From positions 132,251-173,835 of the forward strand of contig JANPIZ010000004.1 of NCBI GenBank assembly GCA_031425235.1: 41,585 nucleotides of DNA, read 5' to 3'. Of the stretch, positions 15,612-32,549 are shown in pieces. Source of the DNA: Candidatus Nomurabacteria bacterium. Lineage in GTDB: Bacteria > Patescibacteriota > Minisyncoccia > Phycocordibacterales > UBA9973. The notes under the pieces were generated by a model. That model was not told where the DNA came from. It searched no databases and worked only from the letters and a program-made list of their open reading frames with translations. Every line of letters starts with the position of its first letter. Positions within the stretch are counted from its first letter, which is position 1. A program made the position numbers and the translations under genes.

Positions 15612-15860
15612 ATGTCAAGTCAATTAGAATATAAAATCGAATACGAATCAGATAAAGAAACTGGTCAAGTAACTGCCATCATTCCGGAATTAAACCATGT
15701 TTCTTCTTTTGGAGATACTTTTGCTGAAGCTGAAGCTAATGTCCGAGAAGCAGCTCTCGGCTATTTGGAGGTACTTAGAAAAGAAAACAAAGAAATTCCT
15801 CAAGCTGCGTTTCGTACGGACGGAACATACCTGAAACTCTTTATACCCGAACGTATCTAA
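15612..15860 (+). CDS. hicB: HicB-family antitoxin
   Basis: IPEL...SFGDT.EA..N.REA...YLE motif. Confidence 0.88.
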   Translation: MSSQLEYKIEYESDKETGQVTAIIPELNHVSSFGDTFAEAEANVREAALGYLEVLRKENKEIPQAAFRTDGTYLKLFIPERI

Positions 15861-15866
15861 ACTTTT

Positions 15867-16094
15867 ATGCCAAAGCTTCGTCGCGTGTCTGCGAAAAAAG
15901 TTATTCAGAAGTTAAAGAAAATTGGTTTTACAGAAACTCATCAGCGGGGAAGCCATCTATATTTAAAAAGTAACGATGGAATAAAAATAGTAACCATCCC
16001 TGTTCACGGCGCAAAAGATATCCCGATTGGAACTTTATATAATATCGTCGTCAGACAAGCTGGTTTATCTGTAGATGAATTTAATAACTTATAG
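15867..16094 (+). CDS. hicA: HicA-family mRNA interferase toxin
   Basis: GF...QRGSH...TIPVH..KDIPIGTL..I..QAG. Confidence 0.93.
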   Translation: MPKLRRVSAKKVIQKLKKIGFTETHQRGSHLYLKSNDGIKIVTIPVHGAKDIPIGTLYNIVVRQAGLSVDEFNNL

Positions 16095-16104
16095 AAAATT
16101 CTAA

Positions 16105-16174
16105 CAAACAAAAAACCGCCCTTCGTGTGCCGAAGGGCGGTTTTTTGTTTAAAGCCTCAAAGCTGGCGAAAGAA
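16105..16174. repeat. 70-bp exact direct repeat (contains bidirectional terminator), copy 1
   Basis: Identical to 16801-16870. aaacaaaaaaccgcccttcg-tgtgc-cgaagggcggttttttgttt. Confidence 0.95.
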
Positions 16175-16772: not shown

Positions 16773-16803
16773 AAAGTATATACTTTGTATAGATTAATGT
16801 CAA
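16773..16803 (-). promoter_or_regulatory. sigma70 promoter and palindromic operator of the TA operon
   Basis: TTGACA(16803-16798)-17 bp-TATACT(16780-16775). Palindrome aaagtatatacttt at 16773-16786. Confidence 0.75.
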
Positions 16804-16870
16804 ACAAAAAACCGCCCTTCGTGTGCCGAAGGGCGGTTTTTTGTTTAAAGCCTCAAAGCTGGCGAAAGAA
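16801..16870. terminator. 70-bp repeat copy 2; likely terminator of the minus-strand island transcript
   Basis: GC-rich stem followed by a U-tract on both strands. Confidence 0.85.
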
Positions 16871-17070
16871 TGTGAGGAGAGAAATGTTAAACCTCGCATC
16901 ACTTCAAAAAAATGATGCTGGGCCAAAGGAGAGAGATCTTGATCAAAAGTATTGATCGAAAACACTTCCCTCCGAGTTTCTTCCGCCAGCTTTCCTGCCT
17001 TTACTCCCACACCTATTTTTTGATAGTTTTTCAAACGCACTTTCAGTGCAATCAAAAAATAGGTGTGGGG
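16856..17070 (-). ncRNA. Putative structured 3' RNA domain of the island
   Basis: 16856-16870 pairs with 16978-16993 and encloses smaller hairpins. 19-bp perfect stem 17006-17024/17051-17069 with an inner GCAC-UGAAA-GUGC hairpin. Confidence 0.6.
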
Positions 17071-17075
17071 ATATA

Positions 17076-17184
17076 ATCCCAATGAATTTATAACCTAAAT
17101 TACAAACTCAACAAGGATGCCCCGACATAAATCGTCGGGGCAAAATCTCGATTAACCCTTGCGCCCGAGTACCATTCGGGACTT
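17076..17184 (-). ncRNA. Intergenic RNA module A, copy 1
   Basis: AAGU[stem]CGCAAGGGUUAAUCGAG-AUUUUGCC[stem]GGCAUCCUUGUUGA[stem]UCAUUGGGAU. Confidence 0.75.
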
Positions 17185-17228
17185 TTTTTGGTTTTAAGAG
17201 CTTGCACTCAGGATAACCAAAAACCTTT
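17164..17228 (-). ncRNA. Intergenic RNA module B, copy 1
   Basis: UUUUUGGUU-AUCCU-GAGU-GCAA-GCUC-UUAA-AACCAAAAA. Near-identical to 19195-19260. Confidence 0.8.
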
Positions 17229-17242
17229 ACTGTGGAATCTAG

Positions 17243-17983
17243 TCAAAAAGTGACTTCGATTCCATGCGCAGACATTAAGTATGCGAATGAGACTTTTGCC
17301 AGGTCTTCCCTGGCATTTCGTTCGAGCTCGTTCTTCTCGAAATCTTTTTGTTGCGCTGCCTCTTGCGCAGATTTTTCCTCCCTCTCAACTCGAGTTGCCT
17401 CGAGGTAAGTGGGAGTTTGCTCCCACGACTCCTGCAGGTTTGTCTCCACAAAACGCAGTGGGTAGGCAGAAAACGGATCCTGCCATCCGATTACCGGCAA
17501 CGCTTCCCCGTTGCTTTCAAATCTTCTCACCAAGCCCATAATGGACTTGAAGAGAACGGGTGGCAACTCCGAAGGAGTTGCGTTAAGGTTGACTACTAAT
17601 TTCTTAGCAATCTTCTGAATTTTTTCAACTCCTTTGACTTGGACCAAGGTGCCCCAAGCAAAAAGCTTCTCGAACTTGGATTTAATTTCCGGCAACTGGG
17701 CCGGAAACTCTTCATCCCACTTTGGCTCGTCGCCGAGCCAAATCTCGAGGTCCCCACTTGGTTGGAGAACCAAGTGAGTTTTGAACTTTCTCCCCAAATT
17801 CTTGGGGTAAAATTCAAGTGACCCATTATATTTCGAAAATTTAAAGGGGGGTTTTAAGCCCGACCCTTTCAAATTTCCACTCCACTCACTGAGTGGATAA
17901 AGGAATTTGATTCTTTCGCCTTCCGAAGGCGATGAAATTAAATTTTCCGGAACCACAACGAAAGTCTTTATAACTGCTATCAT
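17243..17983 (-). CDS. Hypothetical protein (island ORF5)
   Basis: 246-aa ORF with SD AGGAGAAAAGG-ATG. No recognisable family. Confidence 0.8.
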   Translation of the reverse strand: MIAVIKTFVVVPENLISSPSEGERIKFLYPLSEWSGNLKGSGLKPPFKFSKYNGSLEFYPKNLGRKFKTHLVLQPSGDLEIWLGDEPKWDEEFPAQLPEIKSKFEKLFAWGTLVQVKGVEKIQKIAKKLVVNLNATPSELPPVLFKSIMGLVRRFESNGEALPVIGWQDPFSAYPLRFVETNLQESWEQTPTYLEATRVEREEKSAQEAAQQKDFEKNELERNAREDLAKVSFAYLMSAHGIEVTF

Positions 17984-18158
17984 CCTTTTCTCCTATACTC
18001 TGCCTGCCGTAACGGTTCAGGTCTTACGAATATTTTTCTATTTGCCGGATTGAACATGATCCGTGCTTGCAACATGGCTGGTTTAAAATACAAAGCGGGC
18101 ATTAGCCAGGCTCGGTATTAGGTTCAGCTCAACCTGTATCTTTAATTTTTTTGGGTTT

Positions 18159-18286
18159 TTAACCCTATGAATTTACAAATTCCTAGATAGAGTTTGATAC
18201 TCTATCTAATATAAATTTATAAACTCAATAAGATGTAGAATTTTTGCTTTCACGAAAATTCTACAAAACTTTAGATTAACCCTTGT
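18159..18286 (-). ncRNA. Intergenic RNA module A, copy 2
   Basis: CAAGGGUUAAUC..UUUUG[stem, GAAA loop]CAUCUUAUUGA[extended stem]UCAUAGGGUUAA. Confidence 0.7.
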
Positions 18287-18523
18287 CTTATCTGTACTGT
18301 AACGTCAGCACAAAACGGTAGTCCTAATTTTTATTTGCCGGACTTAACTGAGACAAAGCACATTAATTACATAATTCTGTTATCACAACAGTACTATGCC
18401 CAAGATAATCCTTTTTTACCGTTACATTCCGGTCAACCTCTTTAGTCTTTTATGCAGGTTGCTGATTATTTTGATATCCCCCAGTCTGACTGTGCGCTGG
18501 GGTGAGACAGGAAAACTGTTATT

Positions 18524-18979
18524 TTATTGAACCTTTTCCGATAACTTTCTCGCTTTTCTTTTTAAGCGTGTTTTGAAACGCTTAACTTCTGAACGCGAAA
18601 GTTTTCTGGATAAGTAGTATTCATCTTTATTTTCCCAAATAAGATTTTTAACTACTGCTTCTAAAGGATCAACGAAATGAACATGCTTTGAAATCATTTT
18701 CCCAAAGACGCAAGACCACAGGTAGTGATACTGGTCTTTTTGGACTTCAAAGATTTTTTTTCCATTTAACACAGCGAAGTAAGCTTCCCAATGCCAAGTG
18801 CTAAAAGCTACTTGATTTGGACCTACTTCATGCTGACCTATCACCTCTAACCATTCACTTTCCTCAAAAACTTCTTGAGGAAAAAGTATCATGGTTGAAG
18901 GAGCTCCGACCCATGGTCTGGGTCTGATATAGATCAGCAACGGAGACTGTGTCTCGTTTCGGATTGTCTTTATTTCCAT
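18524..18979 (-). CDS. Hypothetical protein (island ORF4)
   Basis: ORF with GGAGAG SD before the ATG at 18979. Basic C-terminus. Confidence 0.7.
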   Translation of the reverse strand: MEIKTIRNETQSPLLIYIRPRPWVGAPSTMILFPQEVFEESEWLEVIGQHEVGPNQVAFSTWHWEAYFAVLNGKKIFEVQKDQYHYLWSCVFGKMISKHVHFVDPLEAVVKNLIWENKDEYYLSRKLSRSEVKRFKTRLKRKARKLSEKVQ

Positions 18980-19107
18980 AAAGCTCTCCAATCACCTCAG
19001 GCTACTCACAACTAAAATAAAGTTGTGCAAGGATTGTGTGATCTAGTCCACACTTAGCGAAGTTCTTGCATTTCTACAACAACAATCCTTATGTCCGTAA
19101 TGGTGAC

Positions 19108-19218
19108 CAATTTCCAAAATACTAGTCGCGTACTACTATTCTGGAAAAAGGTGCCGTCTTTTAAAATAGACGGCAAAATTTTATATAACCCATTCCCGAG
19201 TAACCAACCTCGGGACTT
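19108..19218 (-). ncRNA. Intergenic RNA module A, copy 3 (divergent)
   Basis: AAGU[CCCGAG..CUCGGG]AAUGGGUUAU..UUUUGCCGUC..GACGGCACCUUU[stem]. Confidence 0.6.
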
Positions 19219-19260
19219 TTTGGTTTTAAGAGTTCGCACTCAGGATAACCAAAAACCTTT
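19195..19260 (-). ncRNA. Intergenic RNA module B, copy 2
   Basis: Same hairpin with GAGU-GCGA-ACUC (GNRA loop kept, U-G to U-A change). Confidence 0.8.
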
Positions 19261-19265
19261 TTAAC

Positions 19266-19751
19266 TTATTCTAAACTTTCGTCTAAGAGTTTTTTAAACT
19301 CTTCGACAAGTTTTTTAGCTTCGGAATCTGTCGCGATATTCGCGTAGATTCCTCCACCATGTGCGCAGTCGCACTGCCCTTCGTGAACCCACGAAGGAAT
19401 TGGCAGTTGGACTAAATTTTCAGTCGTTTCAAAAGTTTCCTTTGGAAACTTTTGAAGAATTTTGTTTTTTGTCTTGTCCTCGAGGTGGATACCTCGAAAG
19501 TAAGATTCGTTTGGGCATTCATCTGCCCAAACACTTTTTATTACCCGCGTGGCTTCCTTCGCCACGCAGTAATATTCAAACCTCACCTCGACTGCAGGTG
19601 AGGTTTTATTTTTTACTTCTTCGGGAATAAACCCGAGAAGTTCTTTAATTTTTTCCAAACCAGTAACTCTGATTTGGAATTTTTTTTCTGCAAACATTTT
19701 TTGAGCTTCGGCGCTCATGGCGCCAAGCCCGCTTATTAATAAATTTTCCAT
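19266..19751 (-). CDS. Hypothetical protein (island ORF3)
   Basis: 161-aa ORF with SD AGGAGGAGAAA-ATG. H..QCDCAH possible metal site. Confidence 0.8.
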   Translation of the reverse strand: MENLLISGLGAMSAEAQKMFAEKKFQIRVTGLEKIKELLGFIPEEVKNKTSPAVEVRFEYYCVAKEATRVIKSVWADECPNESYFRGIHLEDKTKNKILQKFPKETFETTENLVQLPIPSWVHEGQCDCAHGGGIYANIATDSEAKKLVEEFKKLLDESLE

Positions 19752-19828
19752 TTTCTCCTCCTAAACCTCATCTGTTGCTTGCAAATTCGCCAAAAGGCAT
19801 GTGAACCAGTCAAGTGTCCTGAAGTTTT

Positions 19829-19936
19829 TTAACCCTATGAAACCACAAAAATAATTTATGATTTCAACAAGGATGCCGAATCAAAAGACTCGGCAAAAAC
19901 TCGATTAACCCTTGCGCCAGTAAACCACACTGACTT
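19829..19936 (-). ncRNA. Intergenic RNA module A, copy 4
   Basis: AAGU[CAGU..ACUG]GCGCAAGGGUUAAUCGAGUUUUUGCCGA..UCGGCAUCCUUGUUGAAA..UUUCAUAGGGUUAA. Confidence 0.75.
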
Positions 19937-19976
19937 GTTGTTGACCCATCCACAACCAGGTTTTTTGCTCAAACGA

Positions 19977-21164
19977 TTATAAAAATCGTTTGAGCAAATT
20001 TTTCTCGAGAATTTCGAGAATTTTTTCCACGGTGAGTGTGGAATTGGTTCCCTGAGGGGAACCTTTTATGTTGGGTTGCCCACCCCAACCCGGTTCAAGC
20101 TGATTCAACTCAGCTTGAACCTTTTCTAAATCCACGTAGCCAGCTTGATACTGACAAATCGTGAATTTCCGGTGAGGATCACCCTCACCAATCCGGAATT
20201 CCGGATTGAGGCAAATTACTATTGGGGCACATGAGTACCCCAATTGCGTAGCAAAGCGGTGAGTACTTACCACCACCGCTATTTGATACAGAAGCGGTGC
20301 TCCTGATCCTTTTCCTATTTCCTGGCACCAAACCTCGGTGCCAGGAATCCCACAATAGCTGCAAAAATTGTCTCTTCCGATAAGAGTTTCTTTGCAGCTG
20401 TCGCAGTCCACAATAGTGTATATTGTGGACTTAATTTTTTTTTCCTCGATCGCGCGGATCATCTCCGCACGCTCGGCTTCAACCCGAGCGCGATAGCCTT
20501 CCGGCTCGGCTCGGGTAAAAAGCCATTCCTCCATCCACCCAACGCGGGTGGAAAAAGGAACTTCGTGGTCCGAAATCGCGGCTGCAATAGCCGCGGTTTC
20601 CGGAAAATCATTTTTGTCCCACGGTTGTTTCGCCGTGGGAAGCAGTTTCGATTTCCATTCGCCGCACGCGAATTTATCCGCGGTGGCGATCATATCCACG
20701 CCAGTATCAAAAAGATACTGGGTGTCCTGGTCTTCCACACCGTGTTGCACGGTGCCGATGTTTGAACGAATGTTCAACACCGCCATCGCCCCGACGGAGT
20801 CGAGGTCGGGACGAACCGTCACTAAAGTCGCATCTTTCGGCGGAAGTTCCGCCGTCAGTGCGACTTCGATAGCCGCCACACTGGCGTCACCACCAGTGTG
20901 TTGGGGATCAATGTTCCCCAAGTTACAGCGCTCGGCTAGCGCTGCAATAGTTACCTCAATCCCAAGCACGGGATGAGGTGTTATCTCTCCGCTTTCGACG
21001 GAGAGATGTGATCCACACATTTCGCAAATTGCGACATGTGTGGAAATTGTTTCCCAAGCATTACCACATACGCAGCGGTAATCAGCTCGAAAAATTTTAT
21101 TGTTTTGTTCCACTGCTTGCGGAACTTTTTTTGGATCCCTTGGATCCAAAGTTTTGAATTTCAT
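19977..21164 (-). CDS. Putative DHH-like phosphoesterase with two zinc-ribbon inserts (island ORF2)
   Basis: NIDPQH, RPDLDSVGA, C-terminal GWGG...GSP. CxC..CxxC and CxxC..CxxC clusters. SD AGGAGAAAAA-ATG. Confidence 0.6.
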   Translation of the reverse strand: MKFKTLDPRDPKKVPQAVEQNNKIFRADYRCVCGNAWETISTHVAICEMCGSHLSVESGEITPHPVLGIEVTIAALAERCNLGNIDPQHTGGDASVAAIEVALTAELPPKDATLVTVRPDLDSVGAMAVLNIRSNIGTVQHGVEDQDTQYLFDTGVDMIATADKFACGEWKSKLLPTAKQPWDKNDFPETAAIAAAISDHEVPFSTRVGWMEEWLFTRAEPEGYRARVEAERAEMIRAIEEKKIKSTIYTIVDCDSCKETLIGRDNFCSYCGIPGTEVWCQEIGKGSGAPLLYQIAVVVSTHRFATQLGYSCAPIVICLNPEFRIGEGDPHRKFTICQYQAGYVDLEKVQAELNQLEPGWGGQPNIKGSPQGTNSTLTVEKILEILEKNLLKRFL

Positions 21165-21188: not shown

Positions 21189-21233
21189 CTTGTTTGCTCG
21201 CTTATTCAGCATATGAGCAAATCTTGTGTCCGG
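21189..21233 (-). ncRNA. Pre-SD RNA module D upstream of ORF2
   Basis: CCGGACACAAGA-UUUGCUC-AUAU-GCU..AGC-GAGCAAA-CAAG. 21-nt core identical to 21661-21681. Confidence 0.75.
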
Positions 21234-21312: not shown

Positions 21313-21612
21313 TTAATACTGTCCGTTTTGGTTGCAAACTTCGCAACCAAAACCTTCGCAGTTTGGACAAAGTAAATCGTCCTCACTGCGCGGCATAAAC
21401 ACTGGGGGTGTTGATTCCACCCCCAATTGCTCGGTGTTTATGACGCAAACCATAAACTCCCCCATTCCGTTTTCTCCGCGATCAATATAATTGATCGCAA
21501 TGATTTTTTCCTTTTGCGGGACTTTTTCAAGTGCAGCAAAAAAACATTCCTTTATGGAGTCACTTTGCGTCTTCGAGACGCCTGTGTATACTCCAAAATT
21601 TTTATTTTTCAT
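21313..21612 (-). CDS. Small protein with C-terminal CxxCxGxGCxxC zinc finger (island ORF1)
   Basis: ATG at 21612 with SD GAGGAGAAAT. CPNCEGFGCEVC. Confidence 0.75.
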   Translation of the reverse strand: MKNKNFGVYTGVSKTQSDSIKECFFAALEKVPQKEKIIAINYIDRGENGMGEFMVCVINTEQLGVESTPPVFMPRSEDDLLCPNCEGFGCEVCNQNGQY

Positions 21613-21637
21613 ATTTCTCCTCACTCTCCTCTGTGTG

Positions 21638-21681
21638 CTTGTCTGCTCGCCGTTAGGCAAATGAGCAAATCTTGTGTCCGG
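21638..21681 (-). ncRNA. Pre-SD RNA module D upstream of ORF1
   Basis: CCGGACACAAGA-UUUGCUC-AUUU-GCC..GGC-GAGCAGA-CAAG. Confidence 0.75.
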
Positions 21682-22362: not shown

Positions 22363-22420
22363 TTATCCACATTGTCACATTTGCATGACAAAACAAAACA
22401 TACTATACTTAAGTATAGTA
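22363..22420. promoter_or_regulatory. DnaA box plus palindromes upstream of the TrmB gene
   Basis: TTATCCACA at 22363-22371, ttgtca-N8-tgacaa at 22372-22391, perfect 20-bp palindrome tactatacttaagtatagta at 22401-22420. Confidence 0.6.
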
Positions 22421-23181
22421 TGGAAGAAAATATTTTAATTCAAACCGGTCTTTCCGAGGAGCAAGCTCAAACATACCAAGCTTTACTTGAAAAAGGCCCA
22501 CAAAAAGCGAGTGACCTATCCAAATGGACAGGTATCAAGCGTGGGCTTATATATAAAGTCCTCGAACAGCTCGAATCCATGAGTTTGGTCTCCAAAACTG
22601 GTGGCCCAGGCACTGTGGCCACCTTCTCCCCCGCGCATCCGAGCCTGCTTCTGTCCAATATTGAAAGAAAAGAAAAAGAAATAGCTTTCAATAAAGAAAT
22701 GCTCCAAAGCTCCATAGGGTCACTTGCGTCAAAATACAACCTGATCATAGGCAAACCCAACATTCAATTCTTCGAAGGAGAAGAAGGGATGAAAAAAGTT
22801 CTCGACGACACTCTAAATGTTTCCACTGGTACTGAAATATATACATACGCTGATTTGGAAGCTATTTTAAAATACATTCCCGACATAAATGCATCATATT
22901 CAGATCGTAGAGAAAAATTAGGAATAAAGAAAAAAGGACTGTTGTTAGATAGTCCCCGGGCACGTGAAGTGATAAAAAATTACCACACAGAGACAACTGA
23001 TACAAAATTTATACCATATGGGGCTGCAGAACTTGAAACGGTAATGCAAATATACGAAAATAAAATTTCTTACATAACTCTAAAAGATAATTCAATGATT
23101 GGAATCATCATAGAAGACCCGCTCATTTATAAAATGCATAAGCTATTATTTGAACATGTCTGGAATATTACAAAAAATTAG
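22420..23181 (+). CDS. TrmB-family transcriptional regulator
   Basis: GLS..QA..Y.ALL..G wHTH, P.IQFFEG.EG, IYENKI. ATG at 22420. Confidence 0.9.
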   Translation: MEENILIQTGLSEEQAQTYQALLEKGPQKASDLSKWTGIKRGLIYKVLEQLESMSLVSKTGGPGTVATFSPAHPSLLLSNIERKEKEIAFNKEMLQSSIGSLASKYNLIIGKPNIQFFEGEEGMKKVLDDTLNVSTGTEIYTYADLEAILKYIPDINASYSDRREKLGIKKKGLLLDSPRAREVIKNYHTETTDTKFIPYGAAELETVMQIYENKISYITLKDNSMIGIIIEDPLIYKMHKLLFEHVWNITKN

Positions 23182-23186
23182 AATCC

Positions 23187-24371
23187 TTAAATTTTTAAGC
23201 TCCCGGGATTTAACACAATTTTTTGGCTCGGCACTCCATGAAAATCAAACTCGCCCGTAACTACAAAACCCATATCGAGATATTTCTGAGAAATTTTAGT
23301 TCTCGGATCACACTCTGCATTTATAGGCACTCGATGCTCAGCTTCGCCTCTTAAGAATTGACGCATCATTTCTTCACCGATAAGTCCTCCTCCATATTTA
23401 GGATTTAAATTAAAAGCACCGAAATGAATTGATTCTAGTTTGCCTTCTTTATTAAAAATATTCTCAAAACGCGCAAACGCTGCAATATTATTTTCATGTT
23501 TAACAATATAAAAATGACTATTAACCTCATCAAAAGGATATAATCCATTGATTAGGGCTTCCCTGAATTCCTTCGGATATGGAGGAGTTGTGTAATTGTT
23601 GCGATATAATTCCTTCATTTCTTCTAACTCTTCGTTGGTCAACTCATGAGCTTGCGCTATTTCAAGTTTTGTTTTTTCGAAATCTTGGAAATTAATCTTT
23701 TTCCTTTCAGCTCGAGCTCGCAATAGTACATTTTTAAAAATAGTGGAAAATGTGATTGCTTCTGTATTCAGAGTATCAAAATTAGATAGAACCTTTTCTA
23801 TATTATCGTCATTCCAATATTCTTGCGGCTGTTCATTGATAATTTTTAATGATTGTTTTAAAGTTTTATAAGCCTTATTATATAAATCCTGCTTTAAATT
23901 TTCGGAACCTTGAGAATCTTGTTTAGAAGCACCTGAATAAAATTTATCAAAATCATATTTTATCTTTTCAGCTGTATCGCAAATTTCTAAAAACTTCCCT
24001 AAAGTACGATCAAATGCAGAACGATTTTCTAATTGCACCGAGGAGGCGTTACCTCCACCTTCTTTTATGGTTAAATCTAAAAAGGCATCGATGTTTTGAG
24101 GGTTTTCCATACCAGCAACAAATGCTTTAAAAAGCATGTCTCGTTTCATTGAGTTTGGCCATTCATAAATAAACTCCGTTATAGATTTATATGTCGATTC
24201 ATTGACACTTTTAGAATATTTTTTAAACTTTTCTAAAAGTGATTTAGGTATGAAATATGAATCCACGCCAAAATCTTTAATATTTCTTGAAGGAAATTTT
24301 TCTATGTTTTCTTTCTTGGAGCTAGACTTGTCTAGTTTTTCCATGGGTGGCTGATCAAATCGTATATTCAT
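23187..24371 (-). CDS. Hypothetical protein with C-terminal GNAT acetyltransferase domain
   Basis: FNLNPKYGGGLIG acetyl-CoA-binding-like motif and Y..MGF. Confidence 0.65.
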   Translation of the reverse strand: MNIRFDQPPMEKLDKSSSKKENIEKFPSRNIKDFGVDSYFIPKSLLEKFKKYSKSVNESTYKSITEFIYEWPNSMKRDMLFKAFVAGMENPQNIDAFLDLTIKEGGGNASSVQLENRSAFDRTLGKFLEICDTAEKIKYDFDKFYSGASKQDSQGSENLKQDLYNKAYKTLKQSLKIINEQPQEYWNDDNIEKVLSNFDTLNTEAITFSTIFKNVLLRARAERKKINFQDFEKTKLEIAQAHELTNEELEEMKELYRNNYTTPPYPKEFREALINGLYPFDEVNSHFYIVKHENNIAAFARFENIFNKEGKLESIHFGAFNLNPKYGGGLIGEEMMRQFLRGEAEHRVPINAECDPRTKISQKYLDMGFVVTGEFDFHGVPSQKIVLNPGSLKI

Positions 24372-31760: not shown

Positions 31761-32549
31761 ATGGCTGAGAAAACAAATGAACTAAAAAAGGTTTTACTCG
31801 AAATGGATTTTTCCCAAAAAGAAGCCGATGTGTATATTGCTATTTTAACTCTTGGTAGGGGAACAGCCTCGAAAATTGCGCGCGAAGCACATATTTTACG
31901 TACTACGGTATATGAAGTATTAAGTTCACTATTCAACAAAGGCCTAGTCACACTTTCCGGCAAAGAGCCAAAGCAAGAATACGTAGCCGAGTCACCCGAC
32001 AGATTGCAGGAATATATAAAAAGCCAGCTCGAGCAAAAACAAAAAGATTTACAGCAAGCAGAAAAAATATTGATCCCTCAGCTTAAATCGATCCACAATG
32101 TCGGCAATCGACCAAAAGTTATGTTTTATGAAGGGACAGAAGGAATGGAAAAAGTATATGAGGACACACTAAGTTCACATGAGGAAATACGCGCATTTGC
32201 CACGTATGATGACATGGAGCAAGCACTTCCTGGATATTTCCCAAAATATTTCCATAGAAGAGCTGCTAAAGGTATACCAATCCGGGCAATATTTCCTTTC
32301 ACAAAAGCTGGAGTTGAGCTGGGTAAAAATGACGCCTCGCAGCTCCGGGAAACAGCTATGGTCCCAGCAGACAAGTACTATTTTTCACCCGAGATAAATA
32401 TATATGATGATAAAATCATGATAGCCTCATGGAAAGAAAAACTCGGTATCATTATCGAATCCCATGAAATAGCAGATGCCATGAAAAAAATATTTGAGCT
32501 TGCCTGGGTAGAAGCTAAAAGACTAGATAAAGATTTGCGAAAAAATTAG
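31761..32549 (+). CDS. TrmB-family transcriptional regulator (second paralog)
   Basis: KEA.VY.A.L.LG wHTH, RTTVY..L..L..KGLV, PKVMFYEG.EG, EINIYDDKI. Confidence 0.92.
   Translation: MAEKTNELKKVLLEMDFSQKEADVYIAILTLGRGTASKIAREAHILRTTVYEVLSSLFNKGLVTLSGKEPKQEYVAESPDRLQEYIKSQLEQKQKDLQQAEKILIPQLKSIHNVGNRPKVMFYEGTEGMEKVYEDTLSSHEEIRAFATYDDMEQALPGYFPKYFHRRAAKGIPIRAIFPFTKAGVELGKNDASQLRETAMVPADKYYFSPEINIYDDKIMIASWKEKLGIIIESHEIADAMKKIFELAWVEAKRLDKDLRKN

Follow-up and report, generated by a model that had tools for sequence, protein, structure and literature searches.

Module A, a covarying RNA family between small genes of Candidatus Nomurabacteria and its relatives, as a candidate intercistronic RNA-processing element

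Introduction

Long hairpins lie between the cistrons of the early messenger RNA of phage T7, where they serve as RNase III processing sites and combine a conserved lower stem with a small irregularity. At the DNA level, integron attC sites carry inverted core sites, R'' (RYYYAAC) and R' (GTTRRRY), which pair in the folded bottom strand. Self-cleaving ribozymes cut themselves at a specific site and leave 2',3'-cyclic phosphate and 5'-OH ends; in the hammerhead, the core strands CUGAUGA and GAAA surround a three-way junction, with a UH cleavage site. Among such ribozymes, three recent classes (hatchet, pistol and twister-sister) owe their discovery to the proximity of hammerhead and twister ribozymes. 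Here, we analyse a stretch of 41,585 nucleotides (nt) from a Candidatus Nomurabacteria bacterium (assembly GCA_031425235.1, contig JANPIZ010000004.1, positions 132,251 to 173,835; hereafter the window) and a repeated multi-hairpin motif in it, Module A, which lies between the small open reading frames (ORFs) of one gene array.

Small self-cleaving ribozyme classes are few; a passage of PMC10761166 counts 12. Bacterial members cluster together, and part of PMC6765202 describes how new classes were found via that clustering. Hatchet ribozymes are presented, in a portion of PMC4604424, with a variable hairpin (P0) upstream. Module A is a widespread structured-RNA family that is absent from Rfam, and in related arrays its slot is filled by type III hammerheads. 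The genome that holds the window comprises 746 kb in 9 contigs, a size that suggests an ultra-small bacterium as host.

Four copies in the window and a family beyond it

The four copies of Module A, described in an earlier note made from the sequence alone, are real repeats on the minus (gene-sense) strand, and the model matches bracket the ranges given there. As that note had stated, one copy follows each of the last four minus-strand ORFs (395, 161, 155 and 246 amino acids, aa). Three successive covariance models were used: R1 (copy 1 alone), R2 (copies 1, 3 and 4) and R3 (13 sequences). R1 found only the 3' half of copy 2 (16 bits, E 0.0045, with the next best match in the window at 15.8 bits), and a full-length alignment of this copy was reached only with R2 and R3. 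A search of the whole 746-kb genome with R2 returned these four copies alone. The genome contains the 12-mer CAAGGGTTAATC exactly three times, each time within the array.

Against shuffled sequences, the RNA folds of all four copies stand out by a wide margin (z from -4.2 to -8.3). Across copies 1, 3 and 4, 97.9% of the alignment cells are paired, and both partners have changed in 14 of the 33 pairs; the four middle stems, noted earlier as differing in sequence, do all pair. The consensus first proposed describes copies 1, 2 and 4 and fails for copy 3, in which all three conserved boxes are divergent and hairpins hp1, hp2 and the long hp3 are retained. Copy 2 lacks hp1, has a longer hp2 and carries a 34-nt inserted hairpin in hp3. 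The copies are mosaics of one another: an extra hairpin (hp0) and hp1 are common to copies 1 and 3, the 5' and mid boxes to copies 1 and 4, and the 3' box to copies 2 and 4.

Outside this genome, R2 matched diverged copies in two other genera of the order, one in genome G194 and two in genome G181. A core pattern written from these copies and scanned over metagenome contigs gave 64 loci, of which 26 (20 distinct) are members and 38 are chance occurrences (27 copies of one human-gut coding sequence and 11 others); the latter were set aside by reading, and R3 had no match in the six of them tested. Run over 30 sources, R3 gave 44 matches, all within 22 member sources (the window counted) and none in 8 chance loci. 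In every multi-copy locus all copies share one strand, including the six copies that L174 holds in 3.7 kb. Within the genus, R3 matched 17 of 120 other genomes (18/121 with this one), and across the order 11 of 150 others (12/151 with this one), a spread that is patchy over many families.

Looser or simpler patterns did not extend the family. The exact 12-mer gave one chance match in 60 relatives, inside a coding region; a loose 5'-box pattern gave at least 120 genome stretches and 12 viral ones, with the downstream context of Module A in 0/132; and the core pattern hit three loci in viral sequences, none of them a member. A literature search found no description of Module A, with the proviso that the supplements of motif-discovery papers (PMC5737381 and a 2015 ribozyme paper) may list a similar candidate; nor did it find hammerhead arrays in these bacteria, or the combination of a TrmB-like regulator with a ribozyme-punctuated orphan-gene array, described. 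As a separate observation, at least four G+C-rich perfect hairpins lie directly upstream of the Module A copy of G194 (L159, G194:C21, 120-470).

Comparison with known RNA families was negative throughout. At gathering score, Rfam 15 (4227 models) reported only 4 transfer RNAs (tRNAs) in the window and only 10 tRNAs in 20 member loci (133 kb), and at E ≤ 10 the copies and the G194 homolog drew only chance-level microRNA, small nucleolar RNA and small RNA matches. The hammerhead core (CUGAUGA plus GAAA) is in none of the four copies, on which no hammerhead model matched. The hatchet, pistol, twister and twister-sister models had no match at E ≤ 10 with queries of 161 and 181 nt and none at gathering score in the 133 kb.

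Fold, covariation and folded strand

The conserved core of Module A consists of the variable hairpin hp2, 1-2 nt, and then a long hairpin made of two parts, P3a and P3. Sequence conservation covers the lower 13 base pairs of this long hairpin, which carry fixed G·U wobbles and a single bulged U. The consensus reads hp2, A, CUUUA-U-UGAGUUCAU ... GUGGAUUCA-UAGAG. P3a is the pairing of the mid box with the 3' box (CUUUA/UAGAG or CCUUA/UWGGG) and extends the long hairpin across the bulged U.

In the alignment of the 44 R3 matches, hp2 is paired in 96.4% of cells (changes on both sides in 9/9 pairs), P3, the upper long hairpin, in 97.3% (11/12) and the optional hp1 in 88.8% (5/5). P1, the pairing of the 5' box with the mid box, reaches 75.2%, with changes on both sides in 4 of 7 pairs. 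P3a covaries even though it lies outside the model: pair 160-245 is UA in 30 sequences, CG in 9 and unpaired in 0, and pair 161-244, a fixed wobble, is U·G in 42; a fixed G·U lies at pair 168-238. An independent set of 17 same-genus copies that took no part in model building is 96.6% paired, and the pair equivalent to 160-245 is CG in 7, UA in 5, UG in 2 and AU in 1.

The alignment also identifies the strand that folds. The gene-sense strand is 94.7% paired and the complementary strand 81.8%, with 186 G·U cells as opposed to 24 A·C cells; it is therefore the gene-sense strand that folds. The covariation thus bears out the earlier description of a covarying multi-hairpin RNA on that strand, and the homologs keep both the linker sequences and the orientation relative to the ORFs.

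A shared slot with type III hammerheads

Module A sits on the strand of the ORFs; the median gap to the preceding ORF stop is 40 nt, and that to the following ORF start is 54 nt. The genes that it separates mostly lack a Pfam family: a scan of 87 ORFs matched only 26 families at E ≤ 1e-4, nearly all of them in a single ORF each, and several of these belong to flanking housekeeping genes.

The clearest link to ribozymes comes from G181, where one array, on one strand, holds 4 type III hammerheads and 2 Module A copies in alternating spacers, each element being followed by GUUCUUU and then an ORF start. In 11 further loci, Rfam gave 12 hammerhead matches in 8 loci, all 12 on the strand of Module A. 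A variable hairpin precedes the hammerheads of these arrays too. Across the order, hammerheads are present in 9/12 genomes with Module A and in 21/139 without it (Fisher p = 2e-5; 151 genomes, one draw), a p value that overstates the case because genomes of one order are not independent samples. Of the 9 genomes that have both, 6 carry them on one contig and one strand, mostly within about 2 kb of each other.

The conserved GUUCUUU box is found 10-30 nt before start codons in L158, L170, L185, L199, L205, L234 and other related loci. It follows hammerheads and Module A alike, is present at 22 of the 44 Module A copies, and several of its leaders have no Shine-Dalgarno sequence. We also considered this box as a pairing partner of the hammerhead 3' strand and rejected the idea, as several spacings are too short for a loop.

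A possible alternative pairing

The earlier note had proposed a two-state switch, in which the mid box pairs with either the 5' or the 3' box. For the family as a whole this does not hold, since P3a is the conserved pairing and P1 is the weaker one. Folding was repeated with each pairing enforced. P3a won by more than 0.5 kcal/mol in 41 of the 44 sequences, and P1 was energetically competitive in just two, copy 1 (-4.0 kcal/mol) and copy 4 (-0.1 kcal/mol). L206 appeared to be another such case, an artefact of its truncated 5' end, which leaves no P1 pairs to enforce.

What survives is a narrower proposal. Within the genus, most of the stronger matches keep the 5' box RGGGUUAA, and 82.9% of P1 cells are paired there, some P1 pairs having changed on both sides. 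In this subgroup it is plausible that the 5' box pairs with the mid box in place of the 3' box, giving two exclusive folds; a switch would be limited to the subgroup, P1 being competitive only in copies 1 and 4.

The array and its neighbourhood

The array around the four copies consists of ORFs of 115, 395, 161, 155 and 246 aa, all on the minus strand (table 1). A full-length homolog of the 395-aa ORF (31% identical) occurs in L170, flanked by a hammerhead and a Module A element.

Table 1. Features of the Module A array and its flanks, in array order (positions in the window).
Feature	Position	Strand	Remarks
394-aa GNAT-like ORF	23187..24371	-	Convergent with TrmB-like gene; weak Pfam match; homologs in the same position in L201 and L161
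TrmB-like winged-helix regulator gene	22372..23181	+	Divergent from array; Pfam TrmB E 1e-12
25-nt box, three copies	21657-21681, 21209-21233, 19797..19821	-	5' of cistron starts; direct repeat D2
115-aa orphan ORF	21313..21660	-	First cistron of the minus-strand array
395-aa ORF	19977..21164	-	5' of copy 4; weak Pfam matches only, a zinc ribbon being the sole recognisable feature
Module A copy 4	19823..19939	-	R1 76.8 bits (E 4.9e-23); R3 110 bits; RNA fold z -6.4; parts in order: hp1, 5' box, hp2, mid box, hp3, 3' box
Copy 4, 5' box	19903-19914	-	CAAGGGUUAAUC
Copy 4, mid box	19864-19875	-	CAUCCUUGUUGA
Copy 4, 3' box	19829-19840	-	UCAUAGGGUUAA
161-aa orphan ORF	19266..19751	-	Between copies 4 and 3; no family in Pfam, PADLOC, NCBIfam or PHROGs
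hp0, second copy	19217..19260	-	Between 161-aa ORF stop and copy 3; 95% identical to 17185..17228
Module A copy 3	19103..19220	-	R1 31.1 bits (E 4.9e-8); R3 72.2 bits; RNA fold z -7.3
155-aa orphan ORF	18524..18991	-	Between copies 3 and 2; no family in Pfam, PADLOC, NCBIfam or PHROGs
Module A copy 2	18153..18291	-	R2 24.6 bits; R3 54.3 bits over 18153-18319; RNA fold z -8.3
246-aa orphan ORF	17243..17983	-	Between copies 2 and 1; no family in Pfam, PADLOC, NCBIfam or PHROGs
hp0, extra hairpin	17185..17228	-	Between 246-aa ORF stop and copy 1; direct repeat D3
Module A copy 1	17068..17186	-	Seed of R1; R3 107.9 bits; RNA fold z -4.2

Among protein neighbours, only the TrmB-like gene recurs beside the family. 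Its homologs adjoin arrays in eight related loci (L161, at 66% identity, L201, L185, L205, L199, L193, L198 and L228), and wherever orientation was checked the gene is divergent from the array. The 25-nt box may be a promoter or operator, possibly one of the TrmB-like protein. Two more TrmB-like paralogs, 27-29% identical, are encoded in the genome (window 31761-32549 and C8:61456-62184); Module A accompanies neither of them and has no copy elsewhere in the genome.

The island is strain-specific. Thirteen syntenic regions of same-genus relatives have neither the boxes nor an R3 match. In G062 the island is missing and its two flanking genes adjoin each other; the same-genus genomes counted in that comparison include one unpublished genome, G084. 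We regard the island as variable because the relatives lack Module A in these regions and the flanking genes are adjacent in G062.

Toxin-antitoxin genes lie nearby. A RelB/YafQ pair is flanked by a 91-nt direct repeat (89% identical; window 16084-16174 and 16780-16870), each copy of which holds a perfect 20-bp bidirectional terminator hairpin; the arrangement suggests insertion of the pair with target duplication. A HicB/HicA antitoxin-toxin pair (window 15612-16094, plus strand) marks the island edge and adjoins an M23 peptidase gene. Directly downstream of copy 1 there is a perfect 19-nt inverted repeat (window 17006-17069), followed by about 200 nt with no convincing gene.

What Module A may do

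It is highly probable that Module A works as an RNA in cis. As to its job, we incline, with some reserve, towards endonucleolytic processing between cistrons, which would make it a counterpart of the hammerheads by analogy with their shared slot. Among the functions offered at the outset (ribozyme, processing site, protein-binding site or single-stranded DNA recombination site), a ribozyme or processing site now leads because type III hammerheads fill the same slot in related arrays, and the recombination site is unsupported. On the processing reading, Module A would act in cis as a structured RNA: it would be part of the polycistronic transcript of a variable array, whose genes are small and mostly orphan, and would cut or mark that transcript between cistrons. 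This would leave a protective hairpin, hp1, at the end of the upstream message and give the downstream cistron a defined, structured 5' end.

Which agent might do the cutting can be judged only tentatively. That Module A is self-cleaving is possible, if rather doubtful. In its favour, the element is interchangeable with a protein-free ribozyme, its patchy spread across families suits a self-contained element, and its layout (upstream hairpin, motif, shared leader) is the same as that of the array hammerheads. In its fullest form, and with the same doubt, the proposal is that Module A may be a new small self-cleaving ribozyme class. Its cut would fall close to the 5' edge, immediately past the optional hp1; in the genus, competition between the 5' and 3' boxes would gate it, and it would stand in for hammerheads as the punctuation of polycistronic arrays in ultra-small bacteria. 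Cleavage by a host RNase is, to our minds, slightly more doubtful still.

Several points weigh against intercistronic cleavage, or against self-cleavage in particular. Cleavage at Module A and its cutting agent are both matters that we infer from the fold, strand, family, position and hammerhead link that we observe. The genome of the window has no hammerhead at all in a genome search and its copies have no GUUCUUU box, so that the hammerhead analogy rests on relatives. Even there, hammerhead matches are found in 30 of 151 order genomes with only 1 genome above the Rfam gathering score; the Rfam model appears to under-call type III hammerheads in these bacteria. Copy 1 is the last element of the array, with no convincing ORF after it. 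Finally, about 11 nt are conserved at ≥90%, in a helix that has fixed wobbles and a single bulged U, and almost all of them lie within regular helix and not in a junction or pseudoknot, an arrangement more like a protein-binding hairpin than like the known small ribozymes. This conserved, near-regular helix looks more like a protein or RNase III target, which counts against self-cleavage.

The described systems match Module A in part. With type III hammerheads (RF00008) it has in common the arrays, the strand, the intergenic slot, the upstream variable hairpin and, often, the downstream GUUCUUU; unlike them, it has no CUGAUGA/GAAA core and no three-way junction, and the Rfam hammerhead models do not match it at E ≤ 10. 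What it shares with hatchet, pistol and twister-sister is a discovery via genomic association, a length of about 120 nt and about a dozen highly conserved nucleotides. It differs from these classes in its conserved near-regular helix, with no internal loops or pseudoknot, and self-cleavage is in its case only a candidate property. Its optional, sequence-variable hairpin just upstream resembles the hatchet P0, as depicted in that portion of PMC4604424. The T7 RNase III hairpins are likewise long intercistronic hairpins parting the cistrons of one transcript, and share with Module A a conserved lower stem with a small irregularity. Module A, however, is sequence-conserved across many genera and alternates with protein-independent ribozymes, and its dependence on RNase III is only hypothetical.

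The strongest rival to processing is an uncleaved protein-binding hairpin (a translational operator, stability element or regulatory site), of which a host factor or an array-linked protein would read the G·U-rich base of the long hairpin. The conserved nucleotides just described are typical of protein recognition, the TrmB-like gene recurs beside the arrays, and the median of 54 nt to the next start codon would suit such a site. We nevertheless hold this explanation to be unlikely. The same slot accommodates self-cleaving hammerheads, which points to cleavage; no RNA-binding protein is conserved beside Module A, TrmB proteins being DNA binders; and the patchy spread over many families favours a self-contained element. 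A double-stranded DNA operator for the TrmB-like protein was tried and rejected, as it leaves the covarying variable stems and the G·U asymmetry unexplained.

Explanations at the DNA level, such as a single-stranded recombination site of the attC kind or a mobile repeat between genes that would shuffle cassettes, seem very improbable to us, for all that the locus looks the part: a cassette-like array of orphan ORFs and toxin-antitoxin pairs, on a strain-specific island missing in G062, with copies that are mosaic in hp0, hp1 and boxes. Like attC, Module A is a structured repeat after each ORF of a variable array and folds in a strand-specific manner. An integron attC site was rejected, however, since the GGGTTAA boxes are direct repeats, not inverted RYYYAAC/GTTRRRY cores, and there is no integron integrase: the sole tyrosine recombinase of the genome is Xer-type (best XerD, XerC and XerA), at 132 bits against the integrase cut-off of 265. 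Moreover, it is the coding strand that folds, Module A keeps the ORF orientation, and RNA-acting hammerheads replace it in relatives. Already disfavoured, and the least credible of all, is the view that the copies are independent intrinsic terminators or stabiliser hairpins with nothing in common beyond being hairpins. On the plus strand hp1 does resemble a terminator with a T run, and plain hairpins are common in these spacers. An intrinsic terminator, though, is a G+C-rich hairpin with a U run directly after it. In the gene sense hp1, hp2 and hp3 have no following U run, no U tract comes directly after the long hairpin, and the intrinsic terminator was rejected as a candidate. The conserved linkers and helix bases recur across genera and metagenomes, and are matched in neither the 8 chance loci nor the 13 syntenic regions.

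Significance

Module A is a conserved, covarying RNA that stands in exactly the hammerhead slot of sister arrays and has no entry in Rfam; on these grounds we consider it well suited as a candidate for a new RNA-processing element. Together with its neighbours it defines a recurring system, a TrmB-like regulator beside a ribozyme-punctuated array of orphan genes. Self-cleavage, if it occurs, would make Module A a new class of catalytic RNA, one from ultra-small bacteria. Otherwise it would still be a handle on why bacteria put ribozymes between small genes: an element that replaces the ribozyme would make roles in processing, stability and translation testable.

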